The notes below the pieces were generated by a model. That model was not told the DNA's origin. It saw only the letters and a list, made by a program, of their open reading frames with translations, and did no database searches. Positions 16,544 to 58,976 of a DNA stretch of 64,000 nucleotides are shown piece after piece. The first letter of the stretch is position 1; each line of letters begins with the position of its first letter. The stretch is from Alphaproteobacteria bacterium (GTDB taxonomy: Bacteria > Pseudomonadota > Alphaproteobacteria > RF32 > CAG-239): assembly GCA_017445475.1 (NCBI GenBank), contig JAFSUB010000005.1, positions 20,124-84,123 on the forward strand, read 5' to 3'. The translations under genes were made by a program, and so were the position numbers.

Positions 16544-17259
16544 AAAAAGTCATACACTTTGGCAAAGACAAGGTTGAAATAAATTAAATAAACGGAATAA
16601 AAACAGACTGAAAGCCAGCCATGGCAACCAAGCCCATTATCCGCCAAAAAAATTAAAAAACACGGAACTTGAAGCAAAAACATCAGCTTGAAAAACTGAA
16701 CGTTATTGCCTCGGGTTTTTTGGAAAACCTTGCGCATTAGTCCGCTATAACCTTGCAGCGCGGAAATCCACGCCAAAAAAGGGCGACTGAAAGCAAAGGG
16801 CGAAATGCTCAAAAAAATCAGCGAAAAAATCCCTATGTTGATAAGGCCTGCTTCCGGTGCCTGCAAAAGCGCCATATACTTTTCAAAAAAGGGCAGATAT
16901 GCGTTGTCAAACCCGAGCAACAACGGCAAAAAAGGCACAAAAAGCAAAAACAATAAAAGCGCAACCGTAATAAAAATCATTTTAGACGATGGAACGGCGC
17001 TGGCCAAAATTTTGCGCCCCTCAAAGTATGGCTTTTTTTGATAATAAAACCTGAAAAAAACGCACCAAAAAATGTAGTAGAAAATACAAACAATCAAACT
17101 TAAAGGATTTGAAAGCCCGTTTGAAATAACGTTGAACAAAGCACAAAATACCAAATGAACAAGCCAAAAAGGGCGCAACTTTTTTTCGTGCTTTGAAAGA
17201 TATGCGTATGCCTGTTGCAAAATGCTTAAAATCGGCAATGTTTTTGTTGTTTCAATCAT
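16498..17259 (-). CDS. hypothetical polytopic membrane protein (253 aa)
   Basis: Six or more hydrophobic segments. Lies immediately downstream of the TraG-like gene on the same strand. Confidence 0.4.
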   Translation of the reverse strand: MIETTKTLPILSILQQAYAYLSKHEKKLRPFWLVHLVFCALFNVISNGLSNPLSLIVCIFYYIFWCVFFRFYYQKKPYFEGRKILASAVPSSKMIFITVALLLFLLFVPFLPLLLGFDNAYLPFFEKYMALLQAPEAGLINIGIFSLIFLSISPFAFSRPFLAWISALQGYSGLMRKVFQKTRGNNVQFFKLMFLLQVPCFLIFLADNGLGCHGWLSVCFYSVYLIYFNLVFAKVYDFFYDVKSCGEDFKKAC

Positions 17260-17261
17260 TG

Positions 17262-19478
17262 TTATCCTTGCCGAACCACGGCCGGTTCATCTTCTTCAAA
17301 CGTGTCCGTTTCTGCCGTTTCGTCATAATCTATGCCGAGTTTTGAAAGCATATCATCATTGACATCTTCGCGCTGTGCCACAATCCAATCCGGAACATTC
17401 GGCGCCGGCTTTAAGGCCGCTAATTTCCGCATTTTCGCATCTAAATACCATCTGGGCGAATCTGCCATAATCGGCCTGTCGATATAGCTTTGCATCAACA
17501 CAACCTGCTTTAACATCGGCAAACTTAAAAGTTCGGTTGTCGAAATCACCGAAATACCTTGCAAATTATATGTAACATTTTTTGCAAACGGGTTGTAGTT
17601 CTTGCCCATTGAGCCTTCGTTTCTGGAAAACGAGGTTGTTTGAACCGTTTTATTGCCAATCATCTTTGAAAAACGCTGCGCCGTAACTTCGTTGTTTTGC
17701 GACAAAATCACTTTGCAAGCCGTTGTTGAAATCACCGTTTCCAAATCATCCTTGCCGTATTTGCCCGAAATTTGCCCCAAATCTTGTCCGATTAAAAGAT
17801 ATGAAACTTTTTGACCGCGTCCGACGGCCGGTCCGTCAATCACCGCTTTGAGTTTGGGCATTTGCGGAAACTCGTCCAAAACAAACAAACACGGGAACGG
17901 CCCCATTTTGCCGTCCGTTTTGTTTTCGTGTCTCGGCGGATTTGAAATCAGATATGAGCTCATCAGCTCAATAAACACCGAACTGATAACCCCGAGCGCC
18001 CGTGCGTCTGTTTGGTTAATCGACAAATAAACCGAAATCGGCTTAAATTCGCCGGTTACCGGATCTTTCATACCGCGCAAATCCTTAAAGTGCAAATCGG
18101 AAAAACTTGTTCTGGCAACAACCGCCGCGTTTTTGAAAATGTTGATTCCCGCAAATGCCGTTGAAATCACCGAACCGCGCTCTTTATCGGGCATTGCGGA
18201 CAATGCGCTGAGTTCCGTATAGCAACGCTGTGCATAGCCGTATTTGCGCGCCTCTTCAACAGCTTCGTCAAGCAAATCATGCATCGGGTCTGCCATCGCC
18301 GCCATTTGATCGCCCTCCGCCAAGCGGCGCTTGATTTCTTGCGCCTGTTTAATTTGCGCCTCGGTCAACCACTCCAAAATCATGGCAATACATGATTCGC
18401 GCCCAATCCATTTTTCGGGCAGCAAATTCCACGTGCCAATCGGCACATAATTGTCGATGGTTACCGTTCCGCTCTTCAAATCATTTAAGGCTCTGGGCAC
18501 CATTGGATCGCGCATATCCTGATAATAACTTTCCAAAACACGCTTGTCTTCTTCATCAAGTTTGCCCTCATAAATTCGGCCGATAAAATAGTCATTCGCG
18601 CGTGCGCGCTCGCACTTTGAAGTGATAAAGTGAATAAAGCCGTTCAACGCCGCACGGCCCGTTTGCGACCAGTGCGGATCAGCACCGCCTTTGGGTTCTT
18701 CAACCAAAATGTTGCAAATTGAATCAACATACATATCTCTGTCCGGCCCCATTTCGGGAAGCGCATTCGGTGACAACGGATTCCAGCTCGGGTAATATAT
18801 GCCCTCTGAAGGCTTATCTTCCGCACCCCAGTTGATGATGAACACCGGACCTTCTTTAGCACGTGCGCCGGATGTTTTGTAACAAAGCTCAGGCTTCGGA
18901 TCGTTGATAATCAAACTCATTCCTTTGGAATAAAAAATCGTCGGCATCACAACACCTGCCGTTTTACCTGTTCCCGGAGGTGCACAGCAAAGCGTTGAAA
19001 GCGTTTCTTTCATCAAAAGCATTTTACCATTAAACTTGCCAACCACCTGACAAAAGCCGTCATAACCCAAAAGCTCCATTCTTTCAACATCACGCGCAGT
19101 TGCAATGCGCGCCGAACCGTGAACGTTTGATTGGAAACGATACGGACACGAAATGCCACCCAAAATGAGCCCGAAAGGAAGAGAAATTGCCGGTAAAATC
19201 GGTATCCAGCGACTGATTGAAAATTCGTGTGAGCTTGAGAGTTTGCGAAACCAATTCGAATATTGTGAAAATAAAAACGTCGGCCGGTTGAAAACCTCGT
19301 TTAAAAACATCTTAACACTTTGGATATTTTCACGCGAAATGCCATGCTCAAGTAAAAAAGAAAACGGCAACGAAAAAATCGTGAGCAACACGGTAACGGT
19401 TAAGGTGATAATCATTGTCATCGCCATCCATCGGACGGCTTTATCATATTCTTCCCACTCAACGCCTCTTTGTTTCAT
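17262..19478 (-). CDS. type IV secretion/conjugal coupling protein, TraG/VirD4 family
   Basis: N-terminal TM helices. HGSARIATARDVERMELLG (TraG/VirD4 GSARwA motif). Walker A PPGTGKTAGVVMPT. Acidic C-terminal tail. Confidence 0.85.
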   Translation of the reverse strand: MKQRGVEWEEYDKAVRWMAMTMIITLTVTVLLTIFSLPFSFLLEHGISRENIQSVKMFLNEVFNRPTFLFSQYSNWFRKLSSSHEFSISRWIPILPAISLPFGLILGGISCPYRFQSNVHGSARIATARDVERMELLGYDGFCQVVGKFNGKMLLMKETLSTLCCAPPGTGKTAGVVMPTIFYSKGMSLIINDPKPELCYKTSGARAKEGPVFIINWGAEDKPSEGIYYPSWNPLSPNALPEMGPDRDMYVDSICNILVEEPKGGADPHWSQTGRAALNGFIHFITSKCERARANDYFIGRIYEGKLDEEDKRVLESYYQDMRDPMVPRALNDLKSGTVTIDNYVPIGTWNLLPEKWIGRESCIAMILEWLTEAQIKQAQEIKRRLAEGDQMAAMADPMHDLLDEAVEEARKYGYAQRCYTELSALSAMPDKERGSVISTAFAGINIFKNAAVVARTSFSDLHFKDLRGMKDPVTGEFKPISVYLSINQTDARALGVISSVFIELMSSYLISNPPRHENKTDGKMGPFPCLFVLDEFPQMPKLKAVIDGPAVGRGQKVSYLLIGQDLGQISGKYGKDDLETVISTTACKVILSQNNEVTAQRFSKMIGNKTVQTTSFSRNEGSMGKNYNPFAKNVTYNLQGISVISTTELLSLPMLKQVVLMQSYIDRPIMADSPRWYLDAKMRKLAALKPAPNVPDWIVAQREDVNDDMLSKLGIDYDETAETDTFEEDEPAVVRQG

Positions 19479-19489
19479 TTTATCACCTT

Positions 19490-20923
19490 TTATGCTAACC
19501 TTTTCAACATCTTTTTAAGCTCGGAGACATCGTTTCTTGGAAGGCGACCGTCTGCCTTACCGATGGCTTTCGACAGCGGCCTTAAGTCTGCCGGACCGCC
19601 TTTGGCAAAACGAACAACCTCAATGTCCATATCGTCCCAAACATCAAGCATATCTTCGGCATTGATGATGTTTGCTTTTGTAACTATCAGATAGGGCTTA
19701 ACGCTCAAATCAAAGTCAGAATCGTCAAGCGCGTCTTCAAGCTTTTGCCGCGCCAAATCAAGCTTTCGAACAGGCGAAACGCGGTGCGAATTTTCAGAAA
19801 ACCACAACGGCTCTTCATCGTTGAAACGCTCTTCATCGGCAAGCCAATCGCCGCTTTGATTGTCAATAAGGCAAAGCACAACCTGCCCCTCGTCAATTGC
19901 CGCATAGTTAATCGCTGTTTTTTGAATTTGAACATCTTTAAGAACCAAATAGCCCTTATCTTCCAAAATTTCTTCAATCGGAGATGAAGGCGTATCAAAA
20001 TCATCATCTCGCAAAGAGGCTCGGCGGGAGGTTCTCTCAACACGATCCTCGCTTTCAAAACGCCTTTGCTTGTCTGCTTTTTCTCTTTTAGATGAGCGCC
20101 TCGATGGACTGCGGCTGTCATCGGCATACACTTCGCGCCGTTTTTCAACCCTTGCTGATTTTACAGACCTTCTCGGCGTTGGCTCATAAGCCTCTAAATC
20201 ATCATCATCTTCATCGTCCAAATCAAAACTTTCCGTTTTTGAGGGCTTTCGACGCACCCTTTCCGACGCATAACCTTCATCCGCGTTTTGTTTGTTTTTT
20301 GGCGCGGTGTCTATTTTAAAAATGTCGGCTTTATCAAACGAATCGATATCCAAATCAAAATCATCATCTTCATCATCTAAGTTGAAAATGTTGTGATTAA
20401 GTGTTTCGCGCGCCGTAACAGCTTTTTGCTTCACCGGATTTGGATTTTCGGACGCAACGGTTAAGGCATTTTGCGTTGGCACGGGTGCGTTTTGCGGCAC
20501 GCTGTAATCATAAATCGGCGTGCGCTTGCCCACCGGCCGAACCTCCTTATACGACTTCTTTTTAACCACAACCGGTGTTTGCGGCACAACCATTTTAAGA
20601 GGCGCTGTCGACTTTTTCAAAATTTTGAAAGGAAGGCTTATGATGCGCCAGACGATGCTCTCCCACGGAACTAAGCTCAACGCAATCCACCCCGTGAGCC
20701 ACAAAGGAATAAACGCAAGCAAAATCAAAATGAAGGCCCATTCTTTCGGCGTGTCGATAATCCAGCCGGATTGCCACAAATTCCACGCATACACCCAGTG
20801 CGGCGGCCAAAAAATGTCAAAACGCCAGTTTTCAAGCACAATAACGCGAATGCCCTCAATGAAGACGATGCTCCACAGGCCGCCGACAAATGTTATCCTT
20901 GCAAGAACGAGTAAGGGTTTCAA
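19490..20923 (-). CDS. hypothetical membrane protein with extreme charged low-complexity linker (477 aa)
   Basis: Two N-terminal TM helices, proline-rich stretch, D/E-runs (DDEDDDFDLDIDSFD; DDEDDDDLE) alternating with R/K/S-rich stretches, and a folded C-terminal domain. Directly upstream of the TraG-like gene. Confidence 0.5.
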   Translation of the reverse strand: MKPLLVLARITFVGGLWSIVFIEGIRVIVLENWRFDIFWPPHWVYAWNLWQSGWIIDTPKEWAFILILLAFIPLWLTGWIALSLVPWESIVWRIISLPFKILKKSTAPLKMVVPQTPVVVKKKSYKEVRPVGKRTPIYDYSVPQNAPVPTQNALTVASENPNPVKQKAVTARETLNHNIFNLDDEDDDFDLDIDSFDKADIFKIDTAPKNKQNADEGYASERVRRKPSKTESFDLDDEDDDDLEAYEPTPRRSVKSARVEKRREVYADDSRSPSRRSSKREKADKQRRFESEDRVERTSRRASLRDDDFDTPSSPIEEILEDKGYLVLKDVQIQKTAINYAAIDEGQVVLCLIDNQSGDWLADEERFNDEEPLWFSENSHRVSPVRKLDLARQKLEDALDDSDFDLSVKPYLIVTKANIINAEDMLDVWDDMDIEVVRFAKGGPADLRPLSKAIGKADGRLPRNDVSELKKMLKRLA

Positions 20924-20979
20924 CGCTTTCTCCTATTTTCCTGATAGGATATTATATTTTAAATTCATTAACAAGTGTT

Positions 20980-21516
20980 TTATTTTCCTTTTCGCTCAAT
21001 TATTTTTTGCGACAGCGTCTGCCTCAAGTTGTCGGCCTCTTTGAGGCTTTGCGCAGCATTTTCTTCTTTGATTTTTTCATCAATGACTTCATCTAACGTC
21101 TTTTTTTCACCAACAACCAAATTTTTAATCACCACGTGTTTGCTCTCGTTTTCATACTTTTCAATTTGTTTTTTGGAAAAATATTCAAACGGTGTCAGAA
21201 AAAATTTGGCATAATCGGCTTGATAAAGGCGCTTTAACCCCTTATACCACAAAAGCACAATCAAAAAAAGCGTTAAAAACAGCATATAGTCCGAAAAACT
21301 TTGAATTGTGCCGTTTTTTCGCCAAAACTCACCGACAAACTGCCATTGACCTTTTGAAACATAGTCAAAGTTCCAAACAGCAAGCACAATCTGACGCGTC
21401 AATGTCAGCCAGAAGGCAGACCAAAGCGTGCAGATTAAAATAAATTTTATCAGTTTTCCAATCCGTTGAAACATAAACTTAACGTCCCTTGTTGTTTTTT
21501 CCAAAAACCGACGCAT
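20980..21516 (-). CDS. hypothetical small membrane protein (178 aa)
   Basis: Two or three TM helices followed by a K/E-rich tail. Overlaps the upstream gene end by 38 nt. Confidence 0.4.
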   Translation of the reverse strand: MRRFLEKTTRDVKFMFQRIGKLIKFILICTLWSAFWLTLTRQIVLAVWNFDYVSKGQWQFVGEFWRKNGTIQSFSDYMLFLTLFLIVLLWYKGLKRLYQADYAKFFLTPFEYFSKKQIEKYENESKHVVIKNLVVGEKKTLDEVIDEKIKEENAAQSLKEADNLRQTLSQKIIERKGK

Positions 21517-23701
21517 ACAAAGGCGAATATTCGGAGCTGTTTTGAGCGTTGCGCTTTGCTATTCTTTCCTTAATTTGTTGCAAAAAGGTTTTCCGCTCGG
21601 AAGCTTTTGCCTTTCTGGCCGCAACATTTCCGAGATGCAAATCGACAATATCCGCAGCTTTTTGCATAACAAGCGGTGCGTTGACCTCAAGCGCTGCATC
21701 CAAAAGGCCTTTTTGAGCCTCAACATTCTCCGATACGGCGTTTTTGGTTATGTTTTTCACGCTTGTATCTGCACCGGCAATCATACTGCGGACATCTTTA
21801 TTCGACTTTTTACCGATGACATCAAAACGGTTTGCCTTAATTTTTTCTTCCTGCTTTGTTTGAATATTGCGAGCACGGCTGATCATATCCTGCAGATGAA
21901 GATTTGCTTCAAGCGCCGCATATGTTTGATACACAAGCTCTGCCTGCGCTTCGGGCTTGTTTTGATATTTGCCGTAATAGCTTGTTTCAAACGCCTTTTT
22001 CTTTTCTTTAAGCTGTTTGGCCTTGGCTTCATCCATATGCGGATTGGCAAGCAATGCGTCAAAAGAAGCCATAATTTGCTTTTCGATAAAACGCTCTTTT
22101 TGCTTTGCGTCGCCTATTACAAAATATGCCTCAGATGTGACGCGCGCGTCATCAATAACAGCGGCAAGCGAATCATTAATTTCTTTTTGGCGTTTTAAGG
22201 CTCTGTCTTGAAGCTCTCTTTGCAAATCGGAATTCGATTTATATTCGCCGTCCCTTTTCCACGCGTCTTTGTTTTGCATCATCTCATCAATCATTTCCGC
22301 ACTTGTCAGCAATATGGCAACATTTCCCGTTTGTGCAAGCGCGCTCAAAGAAAGATTAATCTCTTTTTGCGAAAGTCTTAAAAAGCCTTGTTTATCTTCG
22401 GCTTGGTCAAGTCGGCGCATAAAGTCTTTACCACAGCGTCTTTCAAACTCTTTACGCTTTTCGGGATTGGCATAATTTGCCTCTAAGTCGGCATATAACG
22501 CGCCATATTTTTGAAGCTCGTTATCGGCTGATTTTCCAAGTTTTTGTGCAACCGCAGCCACACCTTCTCTGAAAGCATCAAGCTTTTTGCGTGCGGCTTT
22601 AAGATCGGCGTCTTTGATTTTTGCCGTTTCGGCAGCCGCCGCCGTGCTGAACTCTTTATATGATGTCCAGCCCGAATTGAGCGCTGCTGCCGCAAGCCCT
22701 TCCGCTTTGTCAAAGCCCCAAGACATTAAAGCCAAAAACCATTCTTCATACATATATTGAACAATATCTTGTTCTTTAAACTTTTCACCTTTTTCCGTTT
22801 TGTCGGGAAGCTTTGATTTGTCGCCGTCAAATTTTTCAACCGCACCTTCTTTCTTTTTCTTATTGTAAAGCTCGTGTTGCGCAGCCGTCAATGTTCCGCG
22901 ATAAGCACCTTCTTTGAGCTGCTCATCTGTTAGTTCCTGATTTTCGGAAATTTCCAGCGTTTTCCCGTCAAACATACCCACAATGCGCTCATCGCGCGTA
23001 TTTTCAACATTTTCAGGCGTCGCCATGCTCATCAAAGTCGAATCTTTTAAAGTTTCAATCGTTTCAGGTGCTTTTCCGAACCGCCCCTCATGACCAGCGT
23101 TATAAAGCGCCATCAACTCACCAACTTTTTGTCCGGAAGCGTTTCGGCGTGCACCGTTTGCGCAATATCCGTCCGGCTTTTCATACAGCTCTTTATAAAA
23201 ACTGCCCATCTGATTTAAATGCGCACTCAAAGCGTTTCTTGCCGCCTCATTTTTGCCCTCATCAATATAAAACTGATGCGCTTTGTCTTTTTTGGCCGTG
23301 CCTAAAAAGTGTATGTTTTTGACAAGCTGTGTGCCGACAAGCTCGCCGTTTTCAAGCAAAGCTTCATCCAAAAACAGAGCCGCCGCCGTTTTTTCTTTGC
23401 CACCTTTTATTTTGATTTTGACTTCTTTTAAGTTGTCTAAAATCTGCCGCAAATCTTGCTGTGCTTTGGCGCTTTTGAAAACCAAATCATTGATATCGCC
23501 GCCGTTTTTGTATGCCGTGTTTAAATCAAACATATTCAAACCCGCGACAAAATCTTTTTGCAAAATGAGTTCCGGCTTTTCTTCAAGCATTGTTTTAAGC
23601 TCGTTTTTATTTTCTTCTGAAAGCTCTTTTTGCTTTAAGAGCGCAAGCAGTTTTTCGCAATTTTGCTTGACCTGTTCATCTTCTCTTAATTCTTCTGCCA
23701 T
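21479..23701 (-). CDS. hypothetical large K/E-rich coiled-coil protein (740 aa)
   Basis: No TM segment. Pervasive lysine/glutamate heptads. No enzymatic motif recognised. Confidence 0.5.
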   Translation of the reverse strand: MAEELREDEQVKQNCEKLLALLKQKELSEENKNELKTMLEEKPELILQKDFVAGLNMFDLNTAYKNGGDINDLVFKSAKAQQDLRQILDNLKEVKIKIKGGKEKTAAALFLDEALLENGELVGTQLVKNIHFLGTAKKDKAHQFYIDEGKNEAARNALSAHLNQMGSFYKELYEKPDGYCANGARRNASGQKVGELMALYNAGHEGRFGKAPETIETLKDSTLMSMATPENVENTRDERIVGMFDGKTLEISENQELTDEQLKEGAYRGTLTAAQHELYNKKKKEGAVEKFDGDKSKLPDKTEKGEKFKEQDIVQYMYEEWFLALMSWGFDKAEGLAAAALNSGWTSYKEFSTAAAAETAKIKDADLKAARKKLDAFREGVAAVAQKLGKSADNELQKYGALYADLEANYANPEKRKEFERRCGKDFMRRLDQAEDKQGFLRLSQKEINLSLSALAQTGNVAILLTSAEMIDEMMQNKDAWKRDGEYKSNSDLQRELQDRALKRQKEINDSLAAVIDDARVTSEAYFVIGDAKQKERFIEKQIMASFDALLANPHMDEAKAKQLKEKKKAFETSYYGKYQNKPEAQAELVYQTYAALEANLHLQDMISRARNIQTKQEEKIKANRFDVIGKKSNKDVRSMIAGADTSVKNITKNAVSENVEAQKGLLDAALEVNAPLVMQKAADIVDLHLGNVAARKAKASERKTFLQQIKERIAKRNAQNSSEYSPLYASVFGKNNKGR

Positions 23702-23784
23702 TTCTTTTCTCCAAAATGCTTGAAAATTTAATTTATACTACCACCTTTTTTTGTTTTTGTCTATTACTTTTTTATGACATTTTT

Positions 23785-24747
23785 TTAAGCTTTCACCTTT
23801 TTCAAAAACGAACCTATTTTATGATTTTCTCTGATCCCGTCTTGCGGCGTAACCTTGACAAGGCCGAAAAACCTCGGCTTGATTTTGTCATTCTCAATCG
23901 GCGCATACATTGCCGGATTGGTTGTTAAAACCTCAAAAGCCGCGGGTGCGTCTTTTGAAGCCGTTTTGAAATAGTTGTTGATTAAACGCTCACTGTCAAT
24001 CGGAAAATTCTTGGCTTGAAGCACCTCAATAAAACGACGCTTGCGCTCCTGGCGGCGCATATATTCTTCATACAAAGCCCGCTCAACGCGTTTGCGCTGC
24101 GATTTTAAACGGCGCTCTTCATACGAAATTTCACAATTTTCAATATCAATTAAAATTTCAACATACGAAATCACCGCAAGCTGCAAATTTTGATCGGCCA
24201 ACCCTTCGGCGAAATTCAACAGCTGTTCATCACTTGCATTCGGATTGAGCGTTGAAAGCGTGTCAGGAAAAGCGGCAAGCATAATGTCCCAGCAGGCAAG
24301 CGTATCGCTCACGATTTTTTTACCCAAACTCGGCTTATAATTCGGAACCAAGCTTTCGGGCACAAACGAAAGCTTCGGAAACTCAATTTGACGCATTGCC
24401 GCAATGGCCGTTACCGCATCAATAAAGTTCGTGTATGCCTGCGCAAGCTCGCCTTCATCATTGCCGTAAACAATTTTCGGCTCCTTTTCAAGCTGCTTTT
24501 CAGACTGTTCCACGATTTGTTGTTTTTCTTCGTTTGTGTCGCTGTTTTCGGCGGCAATAAAGGTATTTAAGAGTTTTTCAAACTCATCATCTTTTTCGTC
24601 TTCTTCAATTTCCACGCTTGTTGCATCGGGGATGTTCTCAAGCCGGCCCATAATGTTTGCATTAATGTCTAAAAACGGATTTTCCTCATCTTTTGCCATA
24701 TCACCCTCCACAATAAAACTAACGCTTGCTTTTTGAAACATCTTCAT
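23785..24747 (-). CDS. hypothetical acidic protein (320 aa)
   Basis: Acidic N-terminal third (EEDEKDDEFEK). No recognisable domain. First gene of the minus-strand block ending at 16498. Confidence 0.45.
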   Translation of the reverse strand: MKMFQKASVSFIVEGDMAKDEENPFLDINANIMGRLENIPDATSVEIEEDEKDDEFEKLLNTFIAAENSDTNEEKQQIVEQSEKQLEKEPKIVYGNDEGELAQAYTNFIDAVTAIAAMRQIEFPKLSFVPESLVPNYKPSLGKKIVSDTLACWDIMLAAFPDTLSTLNPNASDEQLLNFAEGLADQNLQLAVISYVEILIDIENCEISYEERRLKSQRKRVERALYEEYMRRQERKRRFIEVLQAKNFPIDSERLINNYFKTASKDAPAAFEVLTTNPAMYAPIENDKIKPRFFGLVKVTPQDGIRENHKIGSFLKKVKA

Positions 24748-39361: not shown

Positions 39362-40285
39362 TCAGCTGATGGTTTTCTTTCTTCTTTTGAACTTTGTTAA
39401 TTTGTCGCTGATTTTTGCCGTATCGCGTCCGGTTTTGGAAAGCCTGTCATACATGCGCTCAATTTCCTTTTCAAGATATGCCTCTTCAATTGAGCTTAAA
39501 AGATGTTCTTTTTCTTGTTTTGTGCCATGCCGCTGTATGCGGTCTGTTTCTTCTATCAGTTCTTCAACGCGCATGCCCGTATCAAGTTGCATTTTAATGA
39601 AATAGGGCATCGAATAAGCAAGCTGGCGTGCACTTAAATATGCCTCAATGTTGTCGGCGCAGTTGTTATATTTGAGCTTTAAAAGCCTGAAGGCAATTTC
39701 AAGCTCACTGCTGTCATCAACCACAATAAACGGCATTTTCGAGGCAAACCCGTTTGAAGCCAGCTCTTTTAGAGCCTCCAAAATGTGGAAAAAAAAGCCG
39801 TTGATGTTGTATAAAATAAAGGGTTTATTTTTCAAAAAACCATCTTGCATAGCAACACAATCATATGCAAGTTCGTCTAATGTTCCGACACCGCCGGGCG
39901 CAAAAACGACAATGTCCGCCGCAAGCAACTTTTTTTTGCGGTTTTCAAGCGTGTCTTCCAATACAACTTCGCTGATTTGCTCTAAAAATTCGTCTTTTTC
40001 ATAAAGCTCATAATATTCTTTTGTTGTAACGCCCACAATCGGCGCAACATTTTCATAGTCGTCCTCTTTTCTGTCATTAAAGGCGTCCAAAACGCCTCTG
40101 GCCACAGCGCCCATCACACCCGAATTTGAAAAGCCGTAATCAAGGCAAAAGCCCATTTTCACAATAAGCTTTCCCATTTTATAACATTCTTCAATGATGA
40201 AAGGATCATTTCCCTCACGGTGGCCGCCCGAAACGCAAACGCGCAGGTTTTTCTTATTTTCGCAATTTGTCTCCATCAAACTCAT
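39362..40285 (-). CDS. LOG family (TIGR00730 Rossmann-fold) protein with C-terminal extension
   Basis: PGGVGTLDEL and GFFFHILE LOG motifs. About 100 aa extra C-terminal K/E-rich region. Confidence 0.7.
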   Translation of the reverse strand: MSLMETNCENKKNLRVCVSGGHREGNDPFIIEECYKMGKLIVKMGFCLDYGFSNSGVMGAVARGVLDAFNDRKEDDYENVAPIVGVTTKEYYELYEKDEFLEQISEVVLEDTLENRKKKLLAADIVVFAPGGVGTLDELAYDCVAMQDGFLKNKPFILYNINGFFFHILEALKELASNGFASKMPFIVVDDSSELEIAFRLLKLKYNNCADNIEAYLSARQLAYSMPYFIKMQLDTGMRVEELIEETDRIQRHGTKQEKEHLLSSIEEAYLEKEIERMYDRLSKTGRDTAKISDKLTKFKRRKKTIS

Positions 40286-40454
40286 CTCCGTTTCAAATTT
40301 TGCCTAAATTTTATGAAACATTTTTTTTTATCGCAAGCATTTTATCACATTTATCATCTTTTCATCTTTTTTAAACGCTCTCAATTGAAAGACCTGTTTT
40401 TGATGATTACTTTTTTGATTGCATATCAACTTTTTTATTTTAAGGAGAAAATAG

Positions 40455-41036
40455 ATGACACAAGGTGTTCGTTATCCAACACTCGCGTTTCACACAGGCG
40501 GCGTCGGCCAAGCAAACGACGGCATTCCGCCGCAACCGTTTGAAACTTTTTGCTATGACAGCGCGTTAATGCAGGCTAAAATCGAAAATTTTAATGTTGT
40601 GCCATACACATCCGTGCTGCCCAAAGAACTATACGGCAACATTGTGCCTGTTGACAAAGTTGCGTCCCATTTCAAACACGGTGCTGTTTTAGAGGTTATT
40701 ATGGCAGGACACGGCGCTTCACGTGATGAACACAAAGCCATTGCAACCGGCGTCGGCATTTGCTGGGGCAAAGACAAATCAGGTGCGCTTATCGGCGGTT
40801 GGGCTGCCGAATATGTGGAGTTTTTTGACACGCATATTGATGATGAAATTGCAAAAGGGCACGCACATATGTGGCTTAATCGATCTTTAAAGCATGAGCT
40901 TGAAATCAGAGGCGTTGAAAAACACAGCGATTTTCAAATGTTTCACAATTATCTCAACATCACCCAAGAGTTTGGTTACAGCTTAACGTGCTTGGGATTT
41001 TTGAACTTTGAATATGCCGAGCCCGTTCAAATTTAG
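40455..41036 (+). CDS. aaxB: pyruvoyl-dependent arginine decarboxylase (PdaD/AaxB family)
   Basis: 193 aa. Self-cleavage site Thr52-Ser53 in [11 protein letters not shown] at the position known for PdaD/AaxB. Strong RBS AAGGAGA. Confidence 0.8.
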
Positions 41037-41047
41037 CGTAAGGATTT

Positions 41048-42538
41048 TTGAAAATGTTTCATCATAAAAATCAAAAAAATGTGTCTTTGCAAACGCCGAA
41101 ATCTTCCACAGGTCTCGGCGTTTGGGCTTTGGCTGCCATTGTTATCAGCTCGATGATTGGCGGCGGCATATACAGCCTGCCGCAAAACATGGCCGCATCA
41201 GCTTCGGCAGGTGCGGTGTTGTGTGCATGGCTCATCACCGGAATCGGTGTTTATTTCATTGCTAATACATTTCGCATTTTATCCGTTGCCAAGCCCGATT
41301 TGACGGCGGGCATTTATATGTATAGCAGGCAGGGTTTCGGGCCGTTTGCAGGCTTCAGCATCGGCTGGTCGTATTGGCTGTGTCAAATTTGCGGCAATGT
41401 CGGCTATGCGGTGATTACGATGGATGCGCTAAACTACTTTTTTGCCCCTCATTTTGCAGGCGGCAACAATTTGCCCTCAATCATCGGCGGTTCGCTCATT
41501 ATCTGGGGGTTTAACTTTTTGGTTTTGCGCGGCATAAAACAGGCAACGCTTGTCAACCTCATCGGAACGGTGGCGAAAATTTTGCCTTTGCTCCTTTTTA
41601 TCATCATGATGGTTTTTGTCTTTAAAACAAGGCAATTTTCCTTTGATTTTTGGGGCGAAAATTTGAGTGTAACGCCACATTTGGGATCATTGCAAGCGCA
41701 AATTAAAAGCACAATGCTTGTAACGCTCTGGGCTTTCATCGGCATTGAAGGCGCCGTTGTCATGAGCCAGCACGCCAAAAGCCAAAAATCTGTCGGCAGA
41801 GCAACGCTTTTAGGTTTTGCCGGCTGTTTGGCAATTTATATTTTGCTCTCGATTTTGCCGTTCGGCTATATGAGCCAACAAGAAATTGCAGGCATTGCAA
41901 ACCCCTCAACAGCCGGAATTTTGGAAAAAATCGTCGGCAAATGGGGAGCGGCCGTCATGAACATCGGCTTGCTTGTTTCGGTTCTGACAAGCTGGCTTGC
42001 GTGGACAATGGTTACTGCGCAGATTCCGCAGGCGGCGGCGCAAAACGGCACATTTCCGAAGGCCTTTGCAAAAGAAAATGAACACCGTGCACCCTCTTTT
42101 TCACTTTTTATAACAAGCGCAATGATGCAGGTTTTTATGCTTCTTGTTTATTTTTCCTCAAATGCGTGGAACACAATGCTTTCAATCACAAGTGTGATGG
42201 TTTTGCCCGCTTATTTTTCGTCTTGTGCATATTTGTGGAAACTTTGCGAAGACCACGAATATCCCTCAAACATCTATATTAAGCGCTCGTCTGCCCTGAT
42301 TTCATCAACAATCGGCGCGCTTTACGCCCTTTGGCTGATATATGCCGCCGGCCTGAAATATCTTTTGCTGGCGGTTATCTTTGCGGCGCTCGGCATACCG
42401 GTTTATATTTGGGCGCGAAAAGAAAACTGCCCAAGTGAGAAAACGTTTTCAAAAAAAGAACTCTGTTTTGCCTGTTTGTTGGTTGTTTTGGCGCTTTTTG
42501 CCATATATGCCATGTGGGCGGGGATCATCAAGGTGTAA
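41048..42538 (+). CDS. aaxC: APC-superfamily amino acid permease, arginine/agmatine antiporter-like
   Basis: 496 aa with 12 or more TM helices. Immediately downstream of the arginine decarboxylase gene on the same strand. Confidence 0.65.
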
Positions 42539-42648: not shown

Positions 42649-43149
42649 ATGAAACAATCATTAATTCAGGTCACCACTTCGGGTGATTATGTGTCGTTTG
42701 CACAACTCGTCTTTCGGGAAAATCTTAAAGGCGTCTCGAAAGAAGAATTTGAGGAGTTTTACAAAATTGCTCCTTCAAATTGGGCGATGACGGTTTTGCA
42801 ACAAGAAGCGCCTTCGGTTGAGGAACAGGTAATCATTGTCAAGAACCAAGACGCCCGCGTGATAGACTTTTGCGCGCGCCTTTACGGCATCTACGGAAAG
42901 ACCGTATCGCAGATTTTGCGCAAGGGCTCTGACGAAGAATGCCAAAAAGTCATCGCGGCGCTCAGAAGCAAGCCTTCCGCCGAGGTTGAAAAAGAGCTGA
43001 TAGAACGCGGTAATTCAGACCTTTTCGAACTCTGGATTAACAAGTTCAAGAGTTTGGAAGAAGACAACGAACGCCTCATTTGTGAGGATGAAAGTTTATC
43101 TTATTTGAAAAACGTCTACATTGATTTCATTATCAATGAAGACGAATGA
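42649..43149 (+). CDS. hypothetical protein (166 aa)
   Basis: ORF with a reasonable start. No recognisable motif. Followed by a strong terminator. Confidence 0.4.
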   Translation: MKQSLIQVTTSGDYVSFAQLVFRENLKGVSKEEFEEFYKIAPSNWAMTVLQQEAPSVEEQVIIVKNQDARVIDFCARLYGIYGKTVSQILRKGSDEECQKVIAALRSKPSAEVEKELIERGNSDLFELWINKFKSLEEDNERLICEDESLSYLKNVYIDFIINEDE

Positions 43150-43252: not shown

Positions 43253-43660
43253 TCAAGAATGAATCTCAACCCATCTTTGCAGCAGCGCTGCAGTTAGCTT
43301 GCAGATAATAATCTCATCATATTTTGATGCATACATCTGCTTTTCGCTGCTCAACGGAACGCGCAAATTTTCAGCGCGAACCGTTCTTGTCATGGCCTCA
43401 TACTCCAGAGGCGCTGTCGTGAGGTTCCAATTTTCGGCAACCTTAACGACTGCGTGGTAGGCAACACTGTAGGCATGAGCCTCAATGTATGCCTCCTCTT
43501 CGGCAGTGAGGTCAACGGCCAGGGCATTGAGCTCTTCGTTTGCCTGTTCAGCCTTTTGGCTGTATTCGGCAATCAGCTCTTGAGCACGCTGCATGTTTGA
43601 CGTGCAAGAAACGCACATCACGCCCGCCATAACAGCGAGCAAAAGAATAATCTTTTTCAT
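43253..43660 (-). CDS. hypothetical exported protein/lipoprotein (135 aa)
   Basis: Signal peptide MKKIILLLAVMAGVMCVSC, then a helical domain. Confidence 0.5.
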   Translation of the reverse strand: MKKIILLLAVMAGVMCVSCTSNMQRAQELIAEYSQKAEQANEELNALAVDLTAEEEAYIEAHAYSVAYHAVVKVAENWNLTTAPLEYEAMTRTVRAENLRVPLSSEKQMYASKYDEIIICKLTAALLQRWVEIHS

Positions 43661-52699: not shown

Positions 52700-53260
52700 A
52701 TGACCATTTTATACATCAATGCCTGCGTGCGTGAAAATTCAAGAACCGAAATTTTGGCGCAACATCTTATCAAAAAACTTCAAAAACCCGTTCAACAAAT
52801 CAATCTGGGACAAATTGCTTTGCTGCCTTTTAATCTTGAACTTTTGCAAAAAAGGAACGCTTTAATCAAAGCGGGCGCGCTTGATGATCCGATGTTTTCT
52901 TATGCGCATCAATTTGCCAACGCCTCTGAAATTGTTATTGCCGCGCCGATGTGGGATTTGTCTTTTCCCGCGCTCTTAAAAACATTTATTGAGCACATCA
53001 ATGTCGGCGGCATCGTGTTCAAATATTCAGGTGAAGGAAAAATTGTGCCGCTTTGCAAGGCCAAAACGCTTTATTACGTTACGACGATGGGCGGACATCA
53101 TCAAACCGATTTCGGATTCGGCTACATCAAAGCTTTGTGCCACACACTTTACGGCATCAAAGATGTTCGGCTCATCAAAGCGGAAGGCCTCAACATTATC
53201 GGCAACGATGTTCCGGCCATCTTAGAAGAAGCCAAAGCACAAATTAACACCATGTTTTAA
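52700..53260 (+). CDS. flavodoxin-like fold NAD(P)H-dependent oxidoreductase
   Basis: MTILYINACVRENSRTEIL N-terminus is typical of FMN-dependent NAD(P)H reductases (Flavodoxin_2 family). Confidence 0.6.
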   Translation: MTILYINACVRENSRTEILAQHLIKKLQKPVQQINLGQIALLPFNLELLQKRNALIKAGALDDPMFSYAHQFANASEIVIAAPMWDLSFPALLKTFIEHINVGGIVFKYSGEGKIVPLCKAKTLYYVTTMGGHHQTDFGFGYIKALCHTLYGIKDVRLIKAEGLNIIGNDVPAILEEAKAQINTMF

Positions 53261-54789
53261 CGCCCAATATCTTTGTGCTTGCCGCTTATGCAGTTTTGCC
53301 TTTTGATTTGCTCCCTGTCAACATAAATCACTTTGCCGCAACATGGGTTAAAATCGTCATTATCGTAAATCAGCCAGATGACATTGAGATTTTTCAAATC
53401 TTGACGCGGCATATCACCATATCCGTCCGTCAAAACAATTTTGTTAACTTTTTTATCTTTTGAAAACGCGCGCACAGCCTTGTCAATATCCGTTCCACCG
53501 CCACCTCGAATACGAAATTCATCAATATCTTTATTGGTCTTAATCTCAACAAAATCAAACACGCGGTGGTCAAACATACCGACTTTGAGCTCTGTTTCTT
53601 TTAATAAGGGTTTTAATTGGCGCAAAAAGTCCTTAAGCATATTGTTATCAACCGAACCGGAAACATCAAGCATCACCTCGGTTGTCGATTTATCCTCTGT
53701 TTCAACATCTTCAATGCGCGCACTGTAATCATTTGCACGCGATGCCCTGCGGTATGACCAGCGCTCTTCCTCTTCTTCAACCGATTTTTTCAAGGCTCGT
53801 TTCCAGTTGACAACTGCCTTAGCCTCGCCGACATCGCCAAACGAATCTCCTTCGTTATCAACCCGTTCTTTTGAAAGTTGTTCTTTGGCACGCTCCAAAG
53901 ATTCGATAATTTTTTTGGCAAGTTCTTCTTTTTCTTTTTTATTTTCTTCTAAAAAGCTCTTTTCTTCAGCATTATAATCAACATCTTCCTCTGGCGTTTC
54001 TTCCTCTTTACCATGAATGCGCCTCATAATTTTATCTAAAAGCGAAGGATTTTCACGGCGCTCTTTTTCTTTTTCAGCCTCTTCAACGGCCTCTTTCCAA
54101 ATCTCATGCGACGAATAGCCTGTTTGAGATTGTGCTCCTTGTTGTTGTCCTTCTTGGCTTTGATCTTGCTCTTGCTGCCCCTCTTGGCCGCCTTGCTGAC
54201 CGTTTTGGCCTTGCTCTTGATTCTGTTCCTGCTGCCCCTCTTGGCCACCTTGCTGACCATCCTGTTGTTGGTTTTGGCCGTCTTGGTTTTGCTGTTGTCC
54301 ATCACCTTGCTGACCGTTTTGGCCTTGCTCTTGATTCTGCTCTTGCTGCCCCTCTTGCTCTTTTTGCTTTTCCTCGCGTTCTTTTAAGAGTTTCTCATAC
54401 ATTTCTTCGGCAGATTTGCCCAAAGCTTCCGGCATATCAACACCGCCTTCAATCATCGGCAGATTTTCCGATTTCAAGATTTGATTAATCACCGAATCTG
54501 TTGCAATGTTCCAAAGCCCTGGCTCTTTATCTTTTGAGCGCATAATATGGTCAAATGCCACATGACAAATCTCGTGCGCAAATAAAAACGTCTGCCTACC
54601 GTCGTCTAAGGTGTGCAAAAATGAAGGCGAATAAATCACTTTTTTGCCGTTTGTGGCAGCCGTACCGATATTGTCATTGGCTTCAAAATCAAGACCGCGC
54701 ACAACAGAGCCCAAACGCGGAAATTTTCGCAAAACCGCATTTTTAATCTCCTGCACTTCTTTTTTTTGTTCCAATGTCAAGGCTGCCAT
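53257..54789 (-). CDS. VWA domain protein with N-terminal putative metallopeptidase (DUF2201-like) region and central Q/E/G-rich repeat
   Basis: HEICHVAFDH (HExxH). DVSGSVDNN MIDAS motif in the C-terminal VWA domain. About 100-aa QEQNQEQGQNGQQGG low-complexity tandem repeat. Confidence 0.7.
   Translation of the reverse strand: MAALTLEQKKEVQEIKNAVLRKFPRLGSVVRGLDFEANDNIGTAATNGKKVIYSPSFLHTLDDGRQTFLFAHEICHVAFDHIMRSKDKEPGLWNIATDSVINQILKSENLPMIEGGVDMPEALGKSAEEMYEKLLKEREEKQKEQEGQQEQNQEQGQNGQQGDGQQQNQDGQNQQQDGQQGGQEGQQEQNQEQGQNGQQGGQEGQQEQDQSQEGQQQGAQSQTGYSSHEIWKEAVEEAEKEKERRENPSLLDKIMRRIHGKEEETPEEDVDYNAEEKSFLEENKKEKEELAKKIIESLERAKEQLSKERVDNEGDSFGDVGEAKAVVNWKRALKKSVEEEEERWSYRRASRANDYSARIEDVETEDKSTTEVMLDVSGSVDNNMLKDFLRQLKPLLKETELKVGMFDHRVFDFVEIKTNKDIDEFRIRGGGGTDIDKAVRAFSKDKKVNKIVLTDGYGDMPRQDLKNLNVIWLIYDNDDFNPCCGKVIYVDREQIKRQNCISGKHKDIGR
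54126..54360. repeat. imperfect tandem DNA repeats encoding the Q/E/G-rich linker of the VWA protein
   Basis: Units such as CCTTGCTGACCGTTTTGGCCTTGCTCTTGATTCTG(T/C)TC(C/T)TGCTGCCCCTCTTG recur at 54196-54247 and 54312-54358, with shorter GNCCNTGCT periodicity throughout. Confidence 0.6.
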
Positions 54790-56820: not shown

Positions 56821-57096
56821 TTAAAGCAGGGCGAACCGCCGGCAGCCGGGTGCTGGGACCATGGCGTCCTTGCAGCCGTCGCAGCTAACGGTTCGAACAT
56901 CCCCGTCGCCAGACGCCGAAGCCGACCAAAGATAGCCTGCAGGCTTGCCGTCAGAGGCTTGATAATCTTGATCTTGCCAACCACCCAAAAGAACGGCTAA
57001 ATCTGAAAGCGAAGCTGCGCGCATAGCATCATCTCGCATAATCTCTAAAGCCTTACTGCCCCAAAGTTCTTCTGCTTTTAACAGTGTCATTGCCAT
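56821..57096 (-). CDS. DGR variable (target) protein as currently framed: 91 aa with the VR forming its last 36 codons. Likely the frameshifted 5' part of a larger target gene.
   Basis: GAAGGAGAC RBS 6 nt before ATG 57096. The 3' 109 nt are the VR. The stop TAA abuts the end of TR/VR homology. Confidence 0.7.
   Translation of the reverse strand: MAMTLLKAEELWGSKALEIMRDDAMRAASLSDLAVLLGGWQDQDYQASDGKPAGYLWSASASGDGDVRTVSCDGCKDAMVPAPGCRRFALL
56823..56931 (-). repeat. DGR variable repeat (VR)
   Basis: 109 nt homologous to 58401-58510. All roughly 23 substitutions occur where the TR coding strand has A. One base is missing relative to the TR, also at a TR-A position. The GC-rich 3' end GCCGGCGGTTCGCCCTG is conserved in both (IMH-like). 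Confidence 0.85.
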
Positions 57097-57168
57097 GTCA
57101 AGTCTCCTTCTTTGTTTCCTTATATCCCCAGTTTATCCGCCCTTCTCACTTTTGTCAAGAACTTTTTT

Positions 57169-58365
57169 TCATTTTTTTATTTTTTTCATCTTCCGAAAAG
57201 CCTTTTTCACATACCGCATTTCTTTTGTCCCTTTCAAATGCGCTTCAAAAGCATTTTGCCGAACCCGAAGATATTCATCACCGATAAAACCCTGTTTATA
57301 ATTTTTTTCAATCGCTTTAATGTAATGCCGCTCACGCCTTTTGGCCGAACCCCTGAGATTTTTGATAATTTTACCGCTTGCGCTCATTTTGTGGTTAAAA
57401 CCCAAAAAATCCAATCCGTTTTTTATTTTGCCAATCTGCGTTTTTTGGTTAAGTTCCAGCTTTAAATTTTCAGTGCAAACTTTTCTTATCATCTGAAGAC
57501 AATATTGCAAATAAGCTTTATTCTCGCCGAGCAAAATAAAGTCATCCATATAACGCACGTAATATTTCACTTTGAAACGCTCTTTAACCAACCTGTCAAT
57601 TTCATCTAAATATAAAAGCGCAAACCATTGGCTCGTCTGGTTTCCGAGCGGCAAACCGATATTGCCGTGCGATTTAATCAGCATTTTCATAAAAAGCATA
57701 TCATCTTCATCAAAGCCGCATTTTTTGAGTTTTTGAAGCAATATATCGTGATTGATGTTTTGAAAATATTTTTTGATGTCGCACTTTAAAAAATAAAATT
57801 CATTGCTCCCTATCTTGATGAAAAGCCGCCGCATAAATGTATGCAGCCTTTTTATGGCAAAATCTGTTCCCTTGCCTTTTCTGGAAGCCGCATTGTCATA
57901 AATTAAACGATTCTCTAACTTTGGTTCCAAAACATTTTTGCAAAAACTCATCAACACGACTCGGTCTTTATAAGGCAATGCTTCAATCAGGCGAACTTTA
58001 GGGTCATGAATGTAAAACGAGCGGTATTTGCTCACGCAATATTTGGCAGATTCTAAGGATTGATTGAGTTTAACCAAATTTTGCCCAAGCTCAATTTCAA
58101 ACGAAATTGTTGCGCGTTTATGCTGTTTGCTTTTTCGGCAAAGTTTGTGCGCCTTGTGCAGGCTTTGAAATGTCAAAAAGTCCTCTGTCATCGAAAATAA
58201 AAAAAGAAACATCCGATAATACATCAAAACAAAAGCTTGTGTCAATGTATGTGATGTTTCAAAAACACCGAAGCATTTTTTGTTCTTCCTCGCCTTAAAA
58301 AAAACGAGGAAAAGAAAAAGTTTCCTTTGCTTTCGGCTCGGGCGAATTTTACTTAAAACCCGCAA
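57169..58365 (-). CDS. DGR reverse transcriptase (probable true start near MTEDFL, about 58191)
   Basis: RT motifs including LGNQTSQ (the DGR-specific I/LGxxxSQ) and YMDD. N-terminal alignment to Bordetella phage Brt begins at MTEDFLTFQSLHKAHK. The upstream 58 codons are low-complexity. Confidence 0.9.
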   Translation of the reverse strand: MRVLSKIRPSRKQRKLFLFLVFFKARKNKKCFGVFETSHTLTQAFVLMYYRMFLFLFSMTEDFLTFQSLHKAHKLCRKSKQHKRATISFEIELGQNLVKLNQSLESAKYCVSKYRSFYIHDPKVRLIEALPYKDRVVLMSFCKNVLEPKLENRLIYDNAASRKGKGTDFAIKRLHTFMRRLFIKIGSNEFYFLKCDIKKYFQNINHDILLQKLKKCGFDEDDMLFMKMLIKSHGNIGLPLGNQTSQWFALLYLDEIDRLVKERFKVKYYVRYMDDFILLGENKAYLQYCLQMIRKVCTENLKLELNQKTQIGKIKNGLDFLGFNHKMSASGKIIKNLRGSAKRRERHYIKAIEKNYKQGFIGDEYLRVRQNAFEAHLKGTKEMRYVKKAFRKMKKIKK

Positions 58366-58400
58366 TATCTGGCCTTTGACGCATGGTTGCGCTTAAAAGC

Positions 58401-58510
58401 AAATCAGGGCGAACCGCCGGCTTTCGGTTGTTGGGATTATTGTCGTTCTTGTTGCCGTTTTAGTTAACGGTTTGAACATTTCCGTTGTCATTCGCCGAAG
58501 CCGACCAAAG
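58401..58510 (-). repeat. DGR template repeat (TR)
   Basis: 110 nt. On the minus strand it reads in one frame with 11 AAY codons (AAT/AAC) and is adenine-rich at every position where the VR differs. Located between avd and the RT. Confidence 0.85.
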
Positions 58511-58532
58511 TTCTCTCTTATCAAACTTTTTC

Positions 58533-58976
58533 TCAAACCCGTTGTTTGTTTTCTTTTTGAGCCCACCTTTCATCATCGCTTTTTTTCCACGCCGCAGTCA
58601 GGCCGATGACCTCTGAAACCTGAAGCGCAATTTGTTTATATTGCCTTTCCGTAATACATCCGGCGCCCTGCGCCGTCATTGAAACATAAGAAAGCAACTT
58701 TAACTTAATGAGGGCATTGTGTTGATGATTTTCACGCAAAACTTTATTTTCCGGTGTATCCAGTTTGATAAAATTTGCCCTAAGCAAACTTTCAACCACA
58801 TCCAAACAAAAATTTTGCATGCGATTAACAAAGACACCCCTGAATTTTGCCGGCGATTTCAAAGTTATTGTCATCACGTATTCGCCAAGTTTTTTAGCCT
58901 GCGTGATAACAAACAAATCACTGCCGCCGGCGAAAGATTGCATCTCAAAAACACCGGACTTTTCTGACATACTCAT
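58533..58976 (-). CDS. avd: DGR accessory variability determinant (Avd), four-helix-bundle protein
   Basis: 147 aa. C-terminal ITERQYKQIALQVSEVIGLTAAWKK aligns with the bAvd/TIGR02436 family. Positioned immediately 5' of the TR. Confidence 0.7.
   Translation of the reverse strand: MSMSEKSGVFEMQSFAGGSDLFVITQAKKLGEYVMTITLKSPAKFRGVFVNRMQNFCLDVVESLLRANFIKLDTPENKVLRENHQHNALIKLKLLSYVSMTAQGAGCITERQYKQIALQVSEVIGLTAAWKKSDDERWAQKENKQRV

Follow-up and report, generated by a model that had tools for sequence, protein, structure and literature searches.

A Chlamydia-like aaxB-aaxC gene pair in uncultured gut and rumen Alphaproteobacteria: a probable arginine-agmatine exchange cassette and an apparently old trait of the clade

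The stretch of DNA analyzed here, 64,000 nucleotides of contig JAFSUB010000005.1 from an alphaproteobacterial assembly (GCA_017445475.1) and hereafter called the window, carries two adjacent genes, aaxB and aaxC, encoding a pyruvoyl-dependent arginine decarboxylase and a permease. A preliminary description of this DNA had taken the pair for a Chlamydia-like arginine-agmatine exchange module of the AaxB-AaxC type, and this identification held: the two proteins share 74% and 61% of their residues with their Chlamydia felis counterparts, they join them in crown clades with 100% bootstrap support, and the site residues and the predicted fold are kept. Combined, these data make it highly probable that the pair is a functional two-gene cassette for arginine-agmatine exchange and an old trait of the uncultured gut and rumen clade that carries it, which we take to be GTDB RF32/CAG-239. 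The features of the locus are as follows, with + and - denoting the forward and reverse strands.

40455..41036 (+): aaxB, proenzyme gene of the pyruvoyl-dependent arginine decarboxylase; ATG start, 193 residues; predicted subunits beta (residues 1-52) and alpha (residues 53-193, with the pyruvoyl group N-terminal)
40608..40613 (+): predicted serinolysis site within aaxB; codon of Thr52 at 40608-40610, codon of Ser53 at 40611-40613
41048..42538 (+): aaxC, gene of a putative arginine/agmatine antiporter of the APA family (TIGR00905); TTG start, 496 residues
40286..40454 (+): AT-rich intergenic region before aaxB, with a presumed promoter
39362..40285 (-): LOG-family gene, divergent, upstream of aaxB

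The 193-residue open reading frame (ORF) with a Thr52-Ser53 self-cleavage site that had been described was found at these coordinates; the 11-residue motif around the site is encoded at 40593-40625, and Ser53 is predicted to turn into the pyruvoyl cofactor. Both genes lie on one strand and each is preceded by a ribosome-binding site, that of aaxB being AAGGAG at 40442-40447, 7 nt ahead of the ATG. The junction of the two genes reads TAG-cgtAAGGAttt-TTG-AAA-ATG. The distance of 11 nt originally reported between them is correct if translation of aaxC begins at TTG 41048, but ATG 41054, which would give a protein of 494 residues and a gap of 17 nt, is the more plausible start, because AAGGA lies 9 nt upstream of it and only 3 nt from the TTG. 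A scan of 40286-40454 with the sigma-70 consensus revealed no convincing promoter, the matches not rising above the shuffled expectation, and the presence of a promoter upstream of aaxB is one that we infer. Given the short spacing, aaxB and aaxC are probably co-transcribed. No Rfam RNA family was found in the 64-kb window.

AaxB matched the Pfam family PF01862 (PvlArgDC) over residues 8-146 with 88.3 bits, well above the gathering cut-off of 22.7, and fell far below the equivalog cut-offs of the archaeal-type PdaD models (34.9 versus 106.95 bits for TIGR00286, and 33.6 versus 207 for NF009064). By these scores it is therefore a divergent branch of the PvlArgDC family, a separate AaxB subfamily and not a PdaD equivalog. 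Authentic chlamydial AaxB proteins were obtained by querying with an approximate C. pneumoniae AaxB sequence; among the database entries that this retrieved was C. felis CF0286 (P0297). The identity of the window AaxB to the latter, 74%, extends over the full length with a single gap of one residue. In an alignment of 32 homologues, 26-84% identical, Asn47, Ser53 and Glu119 were invariant and Asp35 nearly so. A search of the PDB with the single sequence gave no match and a profile was needed; the profile built from the 32-sequence alignment had the PvlArgDC of Methanocaldococcus jannaschii as its sole PDB match, and in the alignment to entry 1N2M residues Asn47, Ser53, Glu119 and Asp35 corresponded to Asn47, Ser53 (Ala in this S53A structure), Glu109 and Asp35 of the archaeal enzyme.

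An AlphaFold2 model of AaxB, with a predicted local distance difference test (pLDDT) score of 96.5 and a predicted template modelling (pTM) score of 0.90, had as its best Foldseek matches in the PDB the M. jannaschii PvlArgDC entries 2QQD and 1N2M (E 5e-13, target-normalized TM-score 0.77-0.83), with the pyruvoyl histidine decarboxylase 1PYA a distant second (E 2e-3). The possibility that the small protein would align better to another pyruvoyl family, raised in the preliminary description, was thus not borne out, the catalytic residues are conserved in the alignments, and the model predicts the PvlArgDC fold. In C. pneumoniae AaxB, cleavage at Ser53 has been shown experimentally, as cited in PMC2720952. 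According to the same work, Arg at position 115, in place of Gly115, blocks self-cleavage of AaxB in C. trachomatis D, and the chlamydial enzyme has a pH optimum of about 3.4 and a KM of about 5 mM. The window AaxB has Gly at the position equivalent to Gly115.

The permease was assigned to the basic amino acid/polyamine antiporters by TIGR00905 (565 bits, cut-off 409.05, residues 18-496), and it stayed under the cut-offs of the equivalog models for ArcD (TIGR03810, 523 versus 591 bits) and AdiC (NF007929, 159 versus 574), under that of the histidine-histamine antiporter model (463 versus 725 bits), and under those of CadB and PotE. Its identity to C. felis AaxC is 61% over 471 residues (61-63% across comparisons), as against 42% to the ArcD-like YdgI of E. 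coli and 29% to AdiC. The only PDB relatives found at E<=1e-10 were AdiC arginine/agmatine antiporters (E 2e-35 for AdiC). Alignment with E. coli AdiC and YdgI showed that AdiC residues Tyr93, Asn101, Trp202, Ile205, Glu208, Trp293 and Tyr365 are kept in the window AaxC. At 17 substrate and gate positions derived from AdiC, the window protein has the same residue as C. felis AaxC in every case, and these residues are also kept in essentially all of 77 alphaproteobacterial AaxC orthologues; YdgI differs from AaxC at four of them. As regards topology, the 12 transmembrane helices initially proposed were recovered as core helices that align with AdiC, but hydropathy revealed one more hydrophobic segment near the C terminus (residues 472-490), and a total of 13 helices is likely. 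The chlamydial AaxC, which has arginine-uptake activity in E. coli, has been described as an arginine:agmatine antiporter located in the cytoplasmic membrane (PMC2720952).

The relation of the pair to its chlamydial counterparts was analyzed starting from an exhaustive search with HMMER against 1.84 billion cluster representatives, which yielded only 157 AaxB-related proteins at E<=0.001. Their identities fall on two sides of a gap: a crown group at 70% or more, and all others at 53% or less. The crown group comprises proteins from gut Alphaproteobacteria, from Chlamydiaceae and from a Cetobacterium metagenome-assembled genome (MAG), together with two groups with proteins of 198-205 residues (hereafter L087 and L088). 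Neighbor-joining trees with 100 bootstraps were built for AaxB (193 columns) and for AaxC (415 columns, rooted with E. coli AdiC); being distance trees with few outgroups, they gave the following support values.

Crown clade: 100% in the AaxB tree, 100% in the AaxC tree
Alphaproteobacteria clade: 83% in the AaxB tree, 92% in the AaxC tree
Chlamydial branch: about 50% in the AaxB tree, 82% in the AaxC tree
Deepest branching order: weakly supported in both trees; in the AaxC tree, chlamydial branch plus L087 lineage, 55%

The permease groups with AaxC and not with YdgI or AdiC; YdgI lies outside the crown clade alongside AdiC, so that the clustering with non-arginine transporters considered in the preliminary description was not seen. 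The alphaproteobacterial and chlamydial clades are separate in both trees, with neither nested within the other. The two window genes sit deep inside the alphaproteobacterial clade, beside those of a related locus (L002), and chlamydial sequences are not their nearest neighbors. Phylogeny, which had been proposed as a check for horizontal acquisition of the pair, thus placed both proteins in alphaproteobacterial clades and not within Chlamydia.

The pair is widespread. One genome per GTDB species was scanned for AaxB relatives, and close relatives of aaxB were found in at least 486 species-level genomes; the best 80 matches were inspected and their loci fetched. These best 80 of 486 are essentially all MAGs of uncultured gut, faecal or rumen Alphaproteobacteria, a few bins being implausibly labelled, and their AaxB proteins are 82-93% identical to that of the window. 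In all 80 loci aaxC directly follows aaxB, with variable flanks: the largest shared type of upstream neighbor accounts for 14 of 74. The LOG-family gene, correctly described as upstream and divergent, is found in that position in a single one of the 80 loci, for which reason a functional link between it and the cassette was rejected and its presence regarded as incidental.

The DNA of the window is ordinary chromosomal sequence and shows hallmarks of Alphaproteobacteria, including SecB beside a Tim44-like gene, ATP synthase, LptF/G and DnaJ. The G+C content, the G+C content at third codon positions and the codon usage of aaxB and aaxC lie within the spread of the window (z-scores of about +1.1 and +1.4 for G+C, and of +0.57 and -1.65 for codon usage), so that the compositional check suggested at the outset disclosed no anomaly. 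These results lend no support to the notion that such a pair would be out of the ordinary for an alphaproteobacterial genome, and perhaps a recent acquisition. By its clade-wide spread, fixed pairing and typical composition, the cassette is an old and conserved possession of uncultured gut and rumen Alphaproteobacteria, as judged from sequence data, and not a recent import. MAG proteins of this kind are already named "pyruvoyl-dependent arginine decarboxylase" by NCBI, and a search of the accessible literature found no paper on the AAX system in gut Alphaproteobacteria. The system described here is a known one in a new group of hosts, its genes arranged as a pair or with the porin gene unlinked, and it reveals no new mechanism.

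Five GTDB records (L032, L034, L052, L060 and L063) bear titles of Eubacteriales, Bacteroidaceae, [Ruminococcus] gnavus or Lachnospiraceae and stem from a single 'cleanbin' project. They carry the alphaproteobacterial type of cassette, branch within the alphaproteobacterial clade and are probably mislabelled or mis-binned.

In Chlamydia the cassette includes a third gene, the C. felis locus having the order OprB porin, PvlArgDC, permease. The statement of the preliminary description that no aaxA-like porin gene adjoins the pair could be extended to the whole window by Pfam scans and tblastn. Among the 80 related loci, four (L047, L048, L056 and L068), which form one subclade with 98-100% bootstrap support, have an AaxA-like porin gene divergently upstream of aaxB; these porins are full-length, have a signal peptide and share 36-40% of their residues with chlamydial AaxA, at E values of about 1e-70 or lower. 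They belong to an alphaproteobacterial family of hundreds of members, 61-79% identical and labelled Alphaproteobacteria wherever named. In three long contigs with such a porin, its gene is divergent beside aaxB-aaxC in one (L092) and unlinked to the pair in the other two (L093 and L094). The porin gene of L094 lies just past rnhB-priA-atpHAGD; the window begins in atpG, and by analogy a porin gene could be located a few kb to its left in this genome. After the porin gene in L092 (7001-13233), L093 and L094 (7001-12500) come genes for a RimB-like protein, a 7TM-transglutaminase, an ATP-grasp protein (ATPgrasp_ST) and a peptidyl-prolyl isomerase, a neighborhood that is thus conserved among the three. 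The L087 lineage, of low G+C content and with an ankyrin-repeat neighbor, has a co-directional OprB-aaxB-aaxC operon as in Chlamydia. Because three lineages link the porin to aaxBC, these arrangements suggest an ancestral cassette with all three genes, aaxA, aaxB and aaxC.

Synteny, distribution, gene structure, orthology, fold and the conservation of residues are shown by the data above. By analogy with the chlamydial proteins, we infer the following for the system of the window as to self-cleavage, the substrate, the stoichiometry of the exchange and the role in physiology. AaxB would be made as a proenzyme of 193 residues and would cleave itself between Thr52 and Ser53, the latter becoming the pyruvoyl cofactor. 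The mature enzyme would convert L-arginine into agmatine and CO2, using one cytoplasmic proton per turnover, and AaxC, a basic amino acid/polyamine family antiporter of the inner membrane, would take up arginine (+1) and release agmatine (+2). With each cycle the cytoplasm would lose a proton and net positive charge would be exported, which would contribute to acid resistance and/or generate proton-motive force, as in the AAX system of C. pneumoniae. Within the gut and rumen alphaproteobacterial clade, the cassette would be inherited vertically.

Several observations weigh against this interpretation. The alphaproteobacterial AaxB and AaxC are known here from sequence, the biochemistry coming only from chlamydial orthologues. 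The NCBIfam equivalog models for archaeal PvlArgDC, ArcD and AdiC all scored below their cut-offs, so that automatic transfer of function is not licensed. The AaxB-type enzyme of Cetobacterium stands in a context of polyamine synthesis, so that possession of the enzyme does not by itself impose a role in exchange. In other gut phyla, pyruvoyl histidine decarboxylases come with antiporters that are annotated as aaxC, the wider transporter family not being arginine-specific (PMC8465708). Promoter and terminator scans around the cassette returned nothing above the shuffled expectation. Finally, Pfam scans of 58 ORFs and tblastn with two chlamydial-type AaxA proteins detected neither OprB/AaxA nor any other porin in the 64-kb window, which is unlike the canonical three-gene operon.

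The first of these contexts to be weighed is polyamine biosynthesis, in which the agmatine made by AaxB would be retained and fed into a route to putrescine, with the permease only importing arginine. Such an arrangement is encountered in Cetobacterium MAGs (L085/L086, 6001-11940), in which a gene of the AaxB type, whose product is 78% identical to the window AaxB, is directly followed by genes for agmatine deiminase and N-carbamoylputrescine amidohydrolase and has no antiporter; in the L088 lineage, the gene of the AaxB-type decarboxylase stands alone. By contrast, no homologue of agmatine deiminase or of the CN-hydrolase was found in the window, nor at distances of up to about 6 kb from the cassette in any of the 80 alphaproteobacterial loci, the decarboxylase is paired with the antiporter throughout these loci, and the site residues of the antiporter equal those of the arginine/agmatine exchanger AaxC. 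A polyamine-synthetic role for the pair is on this evidence unlikely. As a separate observation on L085/L086, a DDAH-like gene and a gene for pyruvoyl histidine decarboxylase (PF02329) are located a few kb downstream.

Other substrates were also considered for the permease, which might be an ArcD-type arginine/ornithine or a histidine/histamine antiporter whose adjacency to aaxB would not imply arginine/agmatine exchange. The arginine-ornithine and histidine-histamine models are indeed its next-best matches in NCBIfam, at 523 and 463 bits, and several gut phyla have aaxC-annotated antiporters beside their pyruvoyl histidine decarboxylases (PMC8465708). Nevertheless, at 61-63% identity the permease is much closer to C. 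felis AaxC than to ArcD-like YdgI (42%), shares a clade of 100% support with the AaxC of Chlamydia, and has the AaxC residue at the four site positions at which YdgI departs from it; the partner enzyme is modelled with the PvlArgDC fold and not with that of histidine decarboxylase, and Pfam scans found no histidine decarboxylase gene in the window. We consider a different substrate quite improbable.

The least credible alternative, a recent acquisition from Chlamydia or else chlamydial contamination or a chimeric assembly, can draw on an identity to the chlamydial proteins that is unusually high across two phyla, and on a chlamydial G+C content so similar (about 40%) that composition is a weak discriminator, but the pair is embedded among ordinary alphaproteobacterial housekeeping genes with window-typical G+C and codon usage, and the alphaproteobacterial clade is monophyletic with the window deep inside and Chlamydia not nearest, so that recent transfer was rejected on composition and tree topology and its probability is judged negligible.

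A probable arginine-agmatine exchange cassette long resident in these Alphaproteobacteria bears on the origin of the chlamydial system. According to Giles et al. 2009 (PMC2720952), the ancestor of the Chlamydiaceae gained aaxABC by horizontal transfer after its split from the Parachlamydiaceae, and AAX has been treated as a chlamydial speciality of unknown horizontal source (PMC2720952). The present data locate the nearest relatives of the chlamydial genes, with trees that leave the direction of transfer unfixed. The order aaxB then aaxC, on the same strand, is shared by the chlamydial loci L082 and L083 and by L087. The genes flanking the cassette in L087 and L088 are not close to those of the window, VirD4 being only 28% identical. 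The alphaproteobacterial cassette and chlamydial aaxABC would descend from a common ancestor that spread horizontally. We further advance, as a speculation of rather low probability, that the aax genes of gut and rumen Alphaproteobacteria, together with an aaxABC lineage of the L087 type, were the reservoir from which the Chlamydiaceae ancestor drew, that the cycle is a core energy-conserving and acid-protective pathway of these bacteria, and that its hosts are significant producers of agmatine in the gut. One further locus concerns the chlamydial side: a MAG labelled Victivallaceae (L083/L084, protein P0316) has aaxABC in the exact chlamydial neighborhood (aro genes, aaxA, aaxB, aaxC, DAO, ldh, pgi) and falls with Chlamydia in the tree of AaxC; this genome is probably a chlamydial one under a wrong label.

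These findings matter in three respects. Close relatives of both chlamydial core genes in hundreds of gut and rumen species, and of the porin in some lineages, provide a comparison group for the study of the chlamydial origin. The cassette predicts conversion of arginine to agmatine, a bioactive polyamine precursor, in a poorly understood gut clade. For biochemical work, the same bacteria also offer AaxB and AaxC from sources that are not pathogens.

Several other features of the window were recorded. Downstream of aaxC, an ORF of 166 residues at 42649-43149 (+) has no family match, a promoter-like site of its own and a codon-usage z-score of -2.4; a counterpart occurs downstream of aaxC in 22 of the 80 loci, at 24-39% identity as compared with 82-93% for AaxB. 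It too was considered and rejected. A small ORF at 43253-43660 (-), also with no family match, has a codon-usage z-score of -3.9, and these two ORFs are the most atypical of the window. The region 56821-58976 (-) resembles a diversity-generating retroelement, with a reverse transcriptase gene at 57169-58365 (RVT_1) that is flanked by repeats at 58441-58510 and 56862-56931. On the strand of the reverse transcriptase, all 15 mismatches in the core of the repeats are positions where the upstream copy has A and the downstream copy G, C or T, and similarity runs on for about 45 nt. The variable copy lies at the 3' end of an ORF of 103 residues (56821-57132), and an ORF of 147 residues at 58533-58976 could be an accessory gene. 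At 16498-24747 (-), a gene for a VirD4/TraG-like coupling protein (17262-19478) stands beside large ORFs at 19490-20923, 21479-23701 and 23785-24747 that have no Pfam match and may encode secretion substrates or be a mobile-element remnant. Lastly, four tandem repeat copies with a spacing of 57 nt are found at 54134-54383, inside a gene for a DUF2201/VWA-like metallopeptidase (53257-54789, -).

Among known systems, the closest to the cassette is AaxABC of Chlamydia pneumoniae (Giles and Graham 2007; Smith and Graham 2008; Giles et al. 2009, PMC2720952). Both have orthologous AaxB and AaxC proteins, encoded on one strand in the order aaxB then aaxC with a short spacer, and share the Thr52-Ser53 site and the site residues of the transporter. 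They differ in that the window has no adjoining aaxA, the porin of its relatives being divergent or unlinked, in that Trp128 of chlamydial AaxB is His in the window AaxB, and in the host, a gut or rumen alphaproteobacterium that is probably free-living as opposed to an obligate intracellular pathogen. With the AdiA/AdiC system of E. coli (AR3), the cassette would share the principle of arginine entry, decarboxylation and agmatine exit, AaxC being distantly homologous to AdiC and retaining the key residues for gate and substrate. By contrast, AdiA is an unrelated, large decarboxylase dependent on pyridoxal phosphate, there is no regulator of the AdiY type, and among the transporters AaxC falls in the ArcD-like branch (42% identity to YdgI), not in the AdiC branch.

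Archaeal PdaD (M. jannaschii MJ0316; PDB 1MT1, 1N13, 1N2M and 2QQD) resembles AaxB in its fold and in the equivalents of Ser53, Asn47, Glu109 and Asp35, but the two proteins are only about 18-19% identical, the window AaxB is about 30 residues longer, and its predicted cleavage site is Thr-Ser in place of the Ser-Ser of PdaD. PdaD serves polyamine synthesis and not an antiport cycle. The HdcA and HdcP proteins of lactic acid and gut bacteria likewise combine a self-cleaving pyruvoyl decarboxylase with a transporter that exchanges precursor for product and comes from the same superfamily as AaxC (PMC8465708); they differ from AaxB-AaxC in their substrate and in a much weaker match to the AaxB fold (E 2e-3 for 1PYA versus 5e-13 for PvlArgDC).

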